From sequence record PQ759886: a stretch of DNA of 64,000 bases. One strand, 5' to 3'. The position numbers were made by a program, and so were the translations under genes. Source of the DNA: Escherichia phage Pu-Krd-SF6. Of the stretch, positions 46,320 through 46,705 are shown piece after piece; the first letter of the stretch is position 1, and every line of letters starts with the position of its first letter. The notes beneath the pieces were generated by a model. The model was not told where the DNA came from. It saw only the letters and a list, made by a program, of their open reading frames with translations, and ran no database searches.

Positions 46320-46505
46320 ATGGAACTTATTACAGAATTATTTGACGGCGCTTCGGCGCCGGTTGTTAACTTAAATCCTAAGCATAAAATACTACAAATT
46401 TTTGCTATTCAAGCCGGCGAAGGAAGCGTGCTTCCTGGATTTAGATTTTGTACATACACCTCTGGCGGTGATACAGATAAAACGTTAAACCAGGCGACAA
46501 AATGA
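46320..46505 (+). CDS. Alt N-terminal paralog fragment, part 1
   Basis: 61 aa; MELITELFDG...FRFCTYTSGGDTDKTL parallels Alt residues 2-60 (MELITELFDE...FRLCTYTSGGDTNRDL). Confidence 0.5.
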   Translation: MELITELFDGASAPVVNLNPKHKILQIFAIQAGEGSVLPGFRFCTYTSGGDTDKTLNQATK

Positions 46506-46705
46506 TGCATATCGTAATGATAGGTGTTAATGAGAAACTATCATTAGTTAAGCTTAAAAACTTGGGTGGAAATCCAATTGGTGTCATTAATGCTGTTTTT
46601 GATACTGCTCTTCAAACAATGAAACAGTATAAAATCGACGCATGCCTATTACGCGTACTAAAAAGTTCAAAATGTAGTTTACAAGTCCCTCGTGTTGTGT
46701 TATAG
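46502..46705 (+). CDS. Alt N-terminal paralog fragment, part 2 (frameshifted)
   Basis: 67 aa; MMHIV...MKQYKIDACLLRVLKS parallels Alt MMHIVPF...MRQYKIDACMLRILKS; in a different frame from part 1. Confidence 0.5.
   Translation: MMHIVMIGVNEKLSLVKLKNLGGNPIGVINAVFDTALQTMKQYKIDACLLRVLKSSKCSLQVPRVVL

Follow-up and report, generated by a model that had tools for sequence, protein, structure and literature searches.

The two short open reading frames (ORFs) that lie directly downstream of alt in the window, i.e. the whole 64,000-nucleotide stretch of DNA that was analysed (Escherichia phage Pu-Krd-SF6, record PQ759886), are best regarded as parts of a single pseudogene. With a probability of roughly 90%, the segment at 46320-46705 is what survives of a second alt-like ADP-ribosyltransferase gene, which in its full-length form is situated immediately after alt in most Tequatroviruses. 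The features by which a pseudogene is recognised were found here in the form of disabling lesions relative to intact alleles, comprising a 1,699-bp out-of-frame deletion and a 1-nt frameshift, and in the form of a relaxed substitution pattern with additional stop codons and frameshifts. Nothing indicates that a product of the remnant is used, and it is presumably without function.

Organisation of the alt locus

The region matches Escherichia phage Pu-Krd-SF7 at 100% identity, and its identity to many Tequatrovirus genomes is 97-99%. Coordinates of the relevant features are collected in Table 1. The alt gene is intact; it is annotated as Alt in a record of 100% identity (PQ759887), and its product matches PF03496 over residues 375-615 (E = 1.3e-33). 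The remnant is followed by its conserved neighbour alt.-3, and genes 54 and 48 lie on the opposite strand, beyond the bidirectional terminator that follows alt.-3.

Table 1. Positions of genes, lesions and putative signals around the alt remnant in the window
Feature	Position	Strand	Basis or remark
DNA ligase (gene 30)	42567-44030	+	
alt.1	44027-44215	+	
T4-type late promoter motif TATAAATA, 24 nt upstream of alt start	44237-44244	+	Exact match
alt, packaged ADP-ribosyltransferase, 682 aa from MELITE, intact	44268-46316	+	ORF list; Alt in PQ759887
ORF1 (T4 alt.-1), 61 aa	46320-46505	+	92% identical to T4 Alt.-1
Frameshift site, A4 run	46479-46482	+	A5 in intact alleles and 5/20 truncated alleles
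ORF2 (T4 alt.-2), 67 aa	46502-46705	+	100% identical to T4 Alt.-2
Deletion junction, single CTAAAAAGT copy	46658-46666	+	Alignment to RB32 alt.-2
Former TAG stop of the paralogue, now out of frame, read through by ORF2	46675-46677	+	
Early-promoter-like site (G)TTTACA-17-TATAGT, extended -10 TG	46678-46706 (G at 46677)	+	10/12 match
alt.-3, 96 aa, DUF5498, intact	46738-47028	+	PF17602, E = 1.4e-64; annotated in T4
Bidirectional intrinsic terminator, between alt.-3 and gene 54	47033-47054	.	Terminator in fPS-2 and SP1 annotations

Two in-frame ATG codons are present at the alt start (ATGATGG, with the ATGs at 44265-44270), the second of which is annotated in databases to give the 682-aa protein beginning MELITE. 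The Alt propeptide is given as seven residues in one review and as six in the primary paper, so that the position of the true start may be worth checking. Beside the same truncated remnant, alt itself comes in several lengths: the window and T4 have 2,049 nt, AV120 and Lv5cm have 2,088 nt, and SYGD1, BGP and SP1 have 2,094 nt. Since alt length varies among phages with the same remnant, alt allele type is not linked to the remnant, which is consistent with mosaic recombination at the locus.

Similarity of the two reading frames to Alt

The preliminary description of this DNA, which was made from the letters alone, reported two ORFs of 61 and 67 codons in different frames that together parallel the N-terminal region of Alt. 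The ORFs are exactly as described, overlapping in ATGA, and the parallel is well beyond chance. BLASTP aligned ORF1 to residues 2-63 of the window's Alt (34/62 identical, 55%; E = 6e-21) and ORF2 to residues 64-118 (34/55 identical, 62%; E = 2e-21). At the DNA level the copy and the 5' region of its own alt share 65.4% identity (231 of 353 columns), with a global alignment score of 97 as against -59 ± 6.8 in 200 shuffles, i.e. more than 20 standard deviations above the shuffled mean. Homology to Alt ends at the residues LKS (about 46666), leaving the last 12 codons of ORF2 without an Alt counterpart. Membership of the Alt/VIP2 clade of ADP-ribosyltransferases is thus limited in the remnant to N-terminal homology, the PF03496 ART domain with its R-S-E motif being absent; indeed, no Pfam family was matched by ORF1, by ORF2 or by the unsplit 128-aa form encoded by SYGD1.

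The first 28 nt of alt and of the remnant (44268-44295 and 46320-46347, nine codons specifying MELITELFD) are identical. Elsewhere, codons that specify the same amino acid are identical in only 30 of 57 cases, and overall DNA identity is 65%; alt and alt.-2 of RB32 differ from each other in nearly the same way. This suggests either constraint at the nucleotide level in the start region or gene conversion between the paralogues.

A full-length paralogue is the probable parent of the remnant

When the copy alone was used as a query, most records matched its first 367 nt only, with about 95% identity, and these matches form the start of a second full-length 'Alt-like' gene. In RB32 this gene, alt.-2, comprises 2,058 nt encoding 685 aa and stands between alt and alt.-3; T2 is arranged alike. 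Over the first 348 nt of RB32 alt.-2 the copy reaches 94.8% identity, as opposed to 65.4% with its own alt, and in a four-way alignment it tracks RB32 alt.-2 from the ribosome-binding site to '...CGCGTACTAAAAAGT'. Further, the Shine-Dalgarno sequence and start context of ORF1 are those of intact RB32 alt.-2, and on the 3' side of the junction the copy continues as the last 20 nt of that gene and the spacer that precedes alt.-3. The remnant is paralogous to Alt rather than a copy of it.

The paralogue itself is an open frame of 685 aa in all four of the complete loci, and five more phages carry it as an annotated CDS of 2,058 nt. RB32 Alt.-2 matches PF03496 with a score of 72 bits and can be aligned to Alt from end to end (41% identity), the Arg, Ser-Thr-Ser and Glu-x-Glu motifs being conserved. 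Judged by these features, the parent of the remnant is a real gene of the ADP-ribosyltransferase family, which diverged from alt long ago. Among 10 intact alleles its N-terminal 116 residues hardly vary. The intact form is therefore taken to be the older state and the T4 form to be the product of a deletion; the annotation of RB32, which speaks of an 'apparent insertion in alt.-2', would accordingly have the direction of change reversed. Literature searches retrieved no study of the targets or function of this second ADP-ribosyltransferase.

Two lesions separate the remnant from the intact gene

RB32 alt.-2 contains two direct copies of the 9-bp sequence CTAAAAAGT, at nt 340-348 and 2039-2047, which are 1,699 bp apart. 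The window retains a single copy at the junction, the mark of a loss of 1,699 bp between short direct repeats. All 20 truncated loci examined share this junction, and the deletion probably had a single origin. The catalytic domain, corresponding to Alt residues 375-615, falls wholly inside the missing 1,699 bp. The end of RB32 alt.-2 reads ...AAG TTC AAA ATG TAG and, because 1,699 is 1 mod 3, the deletion is out of frame and the reading frame runs past the old TAG, adding 12 unrelated codons that account for the non-homologous tail of ORF2.

The second lesion confirms the frameshift proposed in the preliminary description, and locates it at an A-run in which the window lacks one A relative to the intact paralogue. 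Here RB32 reads AAT AAA AAC, whereas the window and T4 read GAT/AAT AAA ACG. The corresponding alignment position, 160, is gapped in 15/20 truncated alleles and in none of the 10 intact alleles. Loss of the A moves ORF1 into a TGA that overlaps an ancestral Met-Met, which is now the start of ORF2. ORF1 accordingly comprises codons 1-53 of the paralogue followed by eight out-of-frame codons and the TGA stop, and ORF2 starts at the ancestral Met-Met, runs through codons 62-116 and ends in 12 codons drawn from out-of-frame and intergenic sequence.

The present state of the locus may be envisaged as follows. Deletion between the CTAAAAAGT repeats would have joined codon 116 out of frame to the last 20 nt of the gene, removing the middle region and the whole catalytic domain and sparing the promoter-like sequence ahead of alt.-3. 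Homopolymer slippage would have removed one A from the A5 run at codon 54, thereby shifting the frame, such that translation from the old start would now end after 61 codons, as in T4 alt.-1. The frame of 67 codons (T4 alt.-2) would in turn open at the internal Met-Met of the former gene, which shares the ATGA overlap with this stop.

Distribution among related phages and relaxation of constraint

The distribution of the deletion was surveyed with a 96-nt junction-spanning probe against records from the GenBank phage collection, which was used because an exact-pattern scan of IMG/VR with the 5' end of the copy yielded four loci only, too few for the purpose. Of 499 phage records with a match, 90 (about 18%) cover the whole probe and so carry the T4-type stump; these counts include duplicate RefSeq/GenBank entries and several T4 laboratory records. 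The remaining records match only the 3' 58 nt of the probe at this place, as expected if the 3' end of the paralogue still lies apart from its 5' end. About 80% (about 82%) of the matching Tequatrovirus records thus appear to keep the paralogue, its intactness having been deduced from match geometry for most of the ~409 non-junction records and checked directly in 10.

Variation was examined in 20 distinct truncated and 10 intact alleles. The A-run is A4 in 15/20 truncated alleles and A5 in 5/20, including that of SYGD1, which is annotated as a single 128-aa CDS. In 10/20 truncated alleles (L002, L003, L012-L014, L017, L020 and L022-L024), codon 6, GAA, which encodes the Glu of the ITE motif and is equivalent to 46335-46337 in the window, has become TAA. 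Further lesions comprise a 1-nt deletion in a T-run inside ORF2 (2/20 truncated alleles), a change of the ORF1 start from ATG to GTG (1/20) and loss of the ORF2 stop (2/20). The codon-6 TAA occurs on both A4 and A5 backgrounds, and the presence of all four combinations of these states indicates recombination within a stretch of 160 nt or recurrent mutation.

Variant sites were classed over the first 348 nt in the ancestral frame. Variants seen in any intact allele comprise 28 synonymous and 2 nonsynonymous changes, with no stop codons and no indels, whereas those confined to truncated alleles comprise 5 synonymous and 14 nonsynonymous changes, one stop and two indels. The difference in the proportion of nonsynonymous or stop to synonymous changes (15:5 among truncated-only variants versus 2:28 among those seen in intact alleles) gives p = 7e-7 in Fisher's exact test, in which variant sites rather than events on a tree were counted across 30 alleles that are non-independent, sharing ancestry and recombining. 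The truncated-only ratio of 3.0 is near the neutral site ratio of 3.56. Within ORF2, the truncated-only changes number four nonsynonymous and no synonymous, together with one frameshift; ORF2 is nevertheless open in 18/20 truncated alleles and 100% identical between the window and T4. On this pattern, the remnant is drifting neutrally, as what is left of a strongly constrained gene that has been released from constraint.

Transcription and expression

The alt gene is expressed late in T4 (PMC9697503). The late motif ahead of alt is the likely source of a late transcript that would run through alt into the remnant, although its position is only suggestive because the window at large shows no enrichment of the motif. 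No terminator-like site was found on the + strand between alt and the remnant, the first + strand terminator lying after alt.-3, and the remnant is still transcribed because it stands between alt and alt.-3 with no intervening terminator. Transcripts of alt.-1 and alt.-2 were detected in a T4 time course and classed as 'middle', whereas the corresponding whole-cell proteomics classed Alt.-1 and Alt.-2 as 'not detected' (PMC9697503, Tables S2 and S3). Alt.-1 (P39495) had zero intensity in 24/24 samples, and Alt.-2 (P39494) was absent among the protein-group rows listed in the portion of the data set consulted (PMC9697503). Shotgun proteomics readily overlooks proteins of 61-67 aa, so that non-detection is supportive but not decisive.

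By comparison, the 96-aa Alt.-3 is abundant from early times in T4 infection, its RNA and protein both being early (PMC9697503), and in the T4 proteome it ranks with the more abundant of the small early proteins (PMC9697503). The best sigma-70 or T4-early-like match in the region, a putative promoter, starts 12 nt beyond the deletion junction and is separated from alt.-3 by about 30 nt. In intact alleles the same site lies in the spacer between alt.-2 and alt.-3, directly after the alt.-2 stop codon. The promoter-like site lies outside the pseudogene and was left intact by the deletion, and the sparing of a putative alt.-3 promoter may be why this endpoint was tolerated.

Alternative explanations

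The notes to the T4 GenBank record state that alt.-1 and alt.-2 'reflect an old duplication of the first part of gene alt' and, in the portion consulted, go on to say that the duplication acquired a stop codon 'and new ...'. On this reading only the 5' part of the phage's own alt was duplicated in tandem and later diverged, as would fit a remnant that lies directly 3' of alt, is collinear with Alt residues 1-118 and has an identical 28-nt start. The copy is, however, far closer to the intact 2,058-nt paralogue found at the same locus elsewhere (95% identity) than to alt (65%), its tail is the 3' end of the paralogue, which a partial duplication would not carry, and its junction consists of one copy of a 9-bp repeat that is present twice in the intact gene. 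We consider partial duplication of alt to be refuted by the paralogue identity and the junction anatomy, and it is correspondingly given a negligible share of the probability. The proposal in the preliminary description of a decaying tandem duplicate of the alt 5' region is therefore upheld as regards decay, but the source is a separate paralogue, of which a deletion remnant survives. It is even harder to credit that the split is not real, whether through a homopolymer sequencing error or through programmed ribosomal frameshifting that yields a single 128-aa product. The shift does fall in a homopolymer run, and A5 alleles such as that of SYGD1 encode a continuous 128-aa frame; the unsplit product, however, also lacks the catalytic domain and evolves neutrally. 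Sequencing error was rejected on the grounds that 15 independently sequenced genomes, the T4 reference among them, have A4, and programmed frameshifting because no slippery site was seen, unsplit A5 alleles exist and evolution is neutral; reading of the sequence at the shift site revealed no recognisable slippery heptamer or downstream stimulatory structure.

The preliminary description also raised the possibility of two small genes derived from the capsid-targeting part of Alt. In such a case ORF1 might be packaged, or compete with Alt for packaging, with ORF2 being translationally coupled to it. The prohead protease removes six N-terminal residues from Alt at ITE-6 and 63 C-terminal residues at LTE-619 (PMC5694885). 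ORF1 of the window keeps MELITE|LFD, identical to Alt, with the propeptide cleavage motif (L/I-x-E) at which gp21 cleaves Alt (PMC5694885), so that a tagged peptide is conceivable. ORF1 also has the ribosome-binding site of the intact gene, with a good Shine-Dalgarno sequence, the ATGA overlap would permit coupled translation, the region is transcribed in T4 and ORF2 remains open in 18/20 truncated alleles; some peptide may thus be made. Against this, the Glu codon of the ORF1 cleavage motif is a TAA in 10/20 related alleles and the ORF1 start codon is altered in one, five truncated alleles are unsplit, the proteins were not detected in T4, and the remnant represents only some half of the ~240-aa N-terminal block that is conserved at high identity between Alt and Alt.-2. 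In addition, changes specific to truncated alleles number 15 nonsynonymous or stop against 5 synonymous, and 4 against none, plus one frameshift, in ORF2. The idea of two functional small genes consequently fares badly, given neutral substitution, a premature stop in half of the alleles and the lack of a detected T4 protein, and is regarded as very improbable; a conserved peptide function of the remnant would be just as doubtful. A further speculation, to which little weight is attached, is that loss of the second Alt-like enzyme was itself selected, for example if some host defence recognised the intact paralogue or made it harmful to carry, and that the T4-type lineage retains a stump from which a short peptide with the MELITE tag is still produced, one that could enter proheads or modulate the packaging of Alt. 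The data argue strongly against a conserved peptide function, but adaptive loss is compatible with them. A neutrally decaying pseudogene remains our preferred reading of the segment.

Relation to T4 and other known systems

That alt.-1 and alt.-2 are related to alt is already known, both from the T4 annotation and from the literature, and the comparison with the T4 alt-54 interval suggested in the preliminary description bears this out in that the two ORFs are T4 alt.-1 and alt.-2. In T4 (NC_000866) these genes comprise 186 and 204 nt, with the same lengths, positions and flanking genes as ORF1 and ORF2, and a 419-nt segment of the window is 97.6% identical to T4 at the nucleotide level. New in the present work are the anatomy of the deletion, the direction of change and the selection test, which amount to detail rather than to a new kind of thing, and the finding matters little beyond annotation hygiene. 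In hundreds of Tequatrovirus annotations alt.-1 and alt.-2 appear as 'hypothetical protein' or 'ADP-ribosyltransferase', and would be better labelled as one pseudogene. Among related records the remnant ORFs are named 'ADP-ribosyltransferase', 'RNA polymerase-ADP-ribosyltransferase' or 'hypothetical protein', and alt.-3 of HMD-9 is labelled 'tail length tape-measure protein'; such labels on the remnant ORFs and on HMD-9 alt.-3 are evident errors of annotation transfer.

The closest known counterpart is the T4 pair itself, alt.-1 (T4p199, P39495) and alt.-2 (T4p198, P39494), which has the same locus, order and ATGA overlap and, in both the four-way and the 24-sequence alignments, the same lesions as the window, namely the A4 run and the CTAAAAAGT junction. 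T4 Alt.-1 differs from ORF1 of the window by five amino acids, and two of the substitutions in ORF1, P25L and E35G, occur only in the window and an identical relative among the 30 alleles compared. In comparison with T4 Alt, which is a packaged NAD+:arginine ADP-ribosyltransferase, the remnant shows homology over residues 1-118, where the MELITE propeptide and cleavage motif lie, but is only 55-62% identical at the protein level and lacks the catalytic domain and the C-terminal propeptide. The alt.-1 and alt.-2 genes of T4 have been named as paralogous duplications of alt (Nolan et al. 2006, PMC1524935), and the same authors list ORF187c (full-length) and ORF188c (partial) of 44RR and ORF183c of RB49 as paralogous duplications next to alt (Nolan et al. 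2006, PMC1524935). Gene g192c of Yersinia phage fPS-2 occupies the same locus, has the same deletion junction and is annotated as 'similar to N-terminal of RNA polymerase-ADP-ribosyltransferase Alt' and as a putative pseudogene. Unlike the window, fPS-2 keeps A5, with no frameshift, and has the TAA at codon 6; it was annotated with one ORF of 92 aa that starts internally.

The full-length alt.-2 of RB32, T2, T6, HP3 and others ('Alt-like RNA polymerase ADP-ribosyltransferase', 685 aa) differs from the segment in the window by the 1,699 bp, including the ART domain, that the window lacks and by the 1-nt frameshift. The model phage T4 is without a second packaged-type ADP-ribosyltransferase, which appears to persist, under strong purifying selection, in T2, T6 and most relatives.
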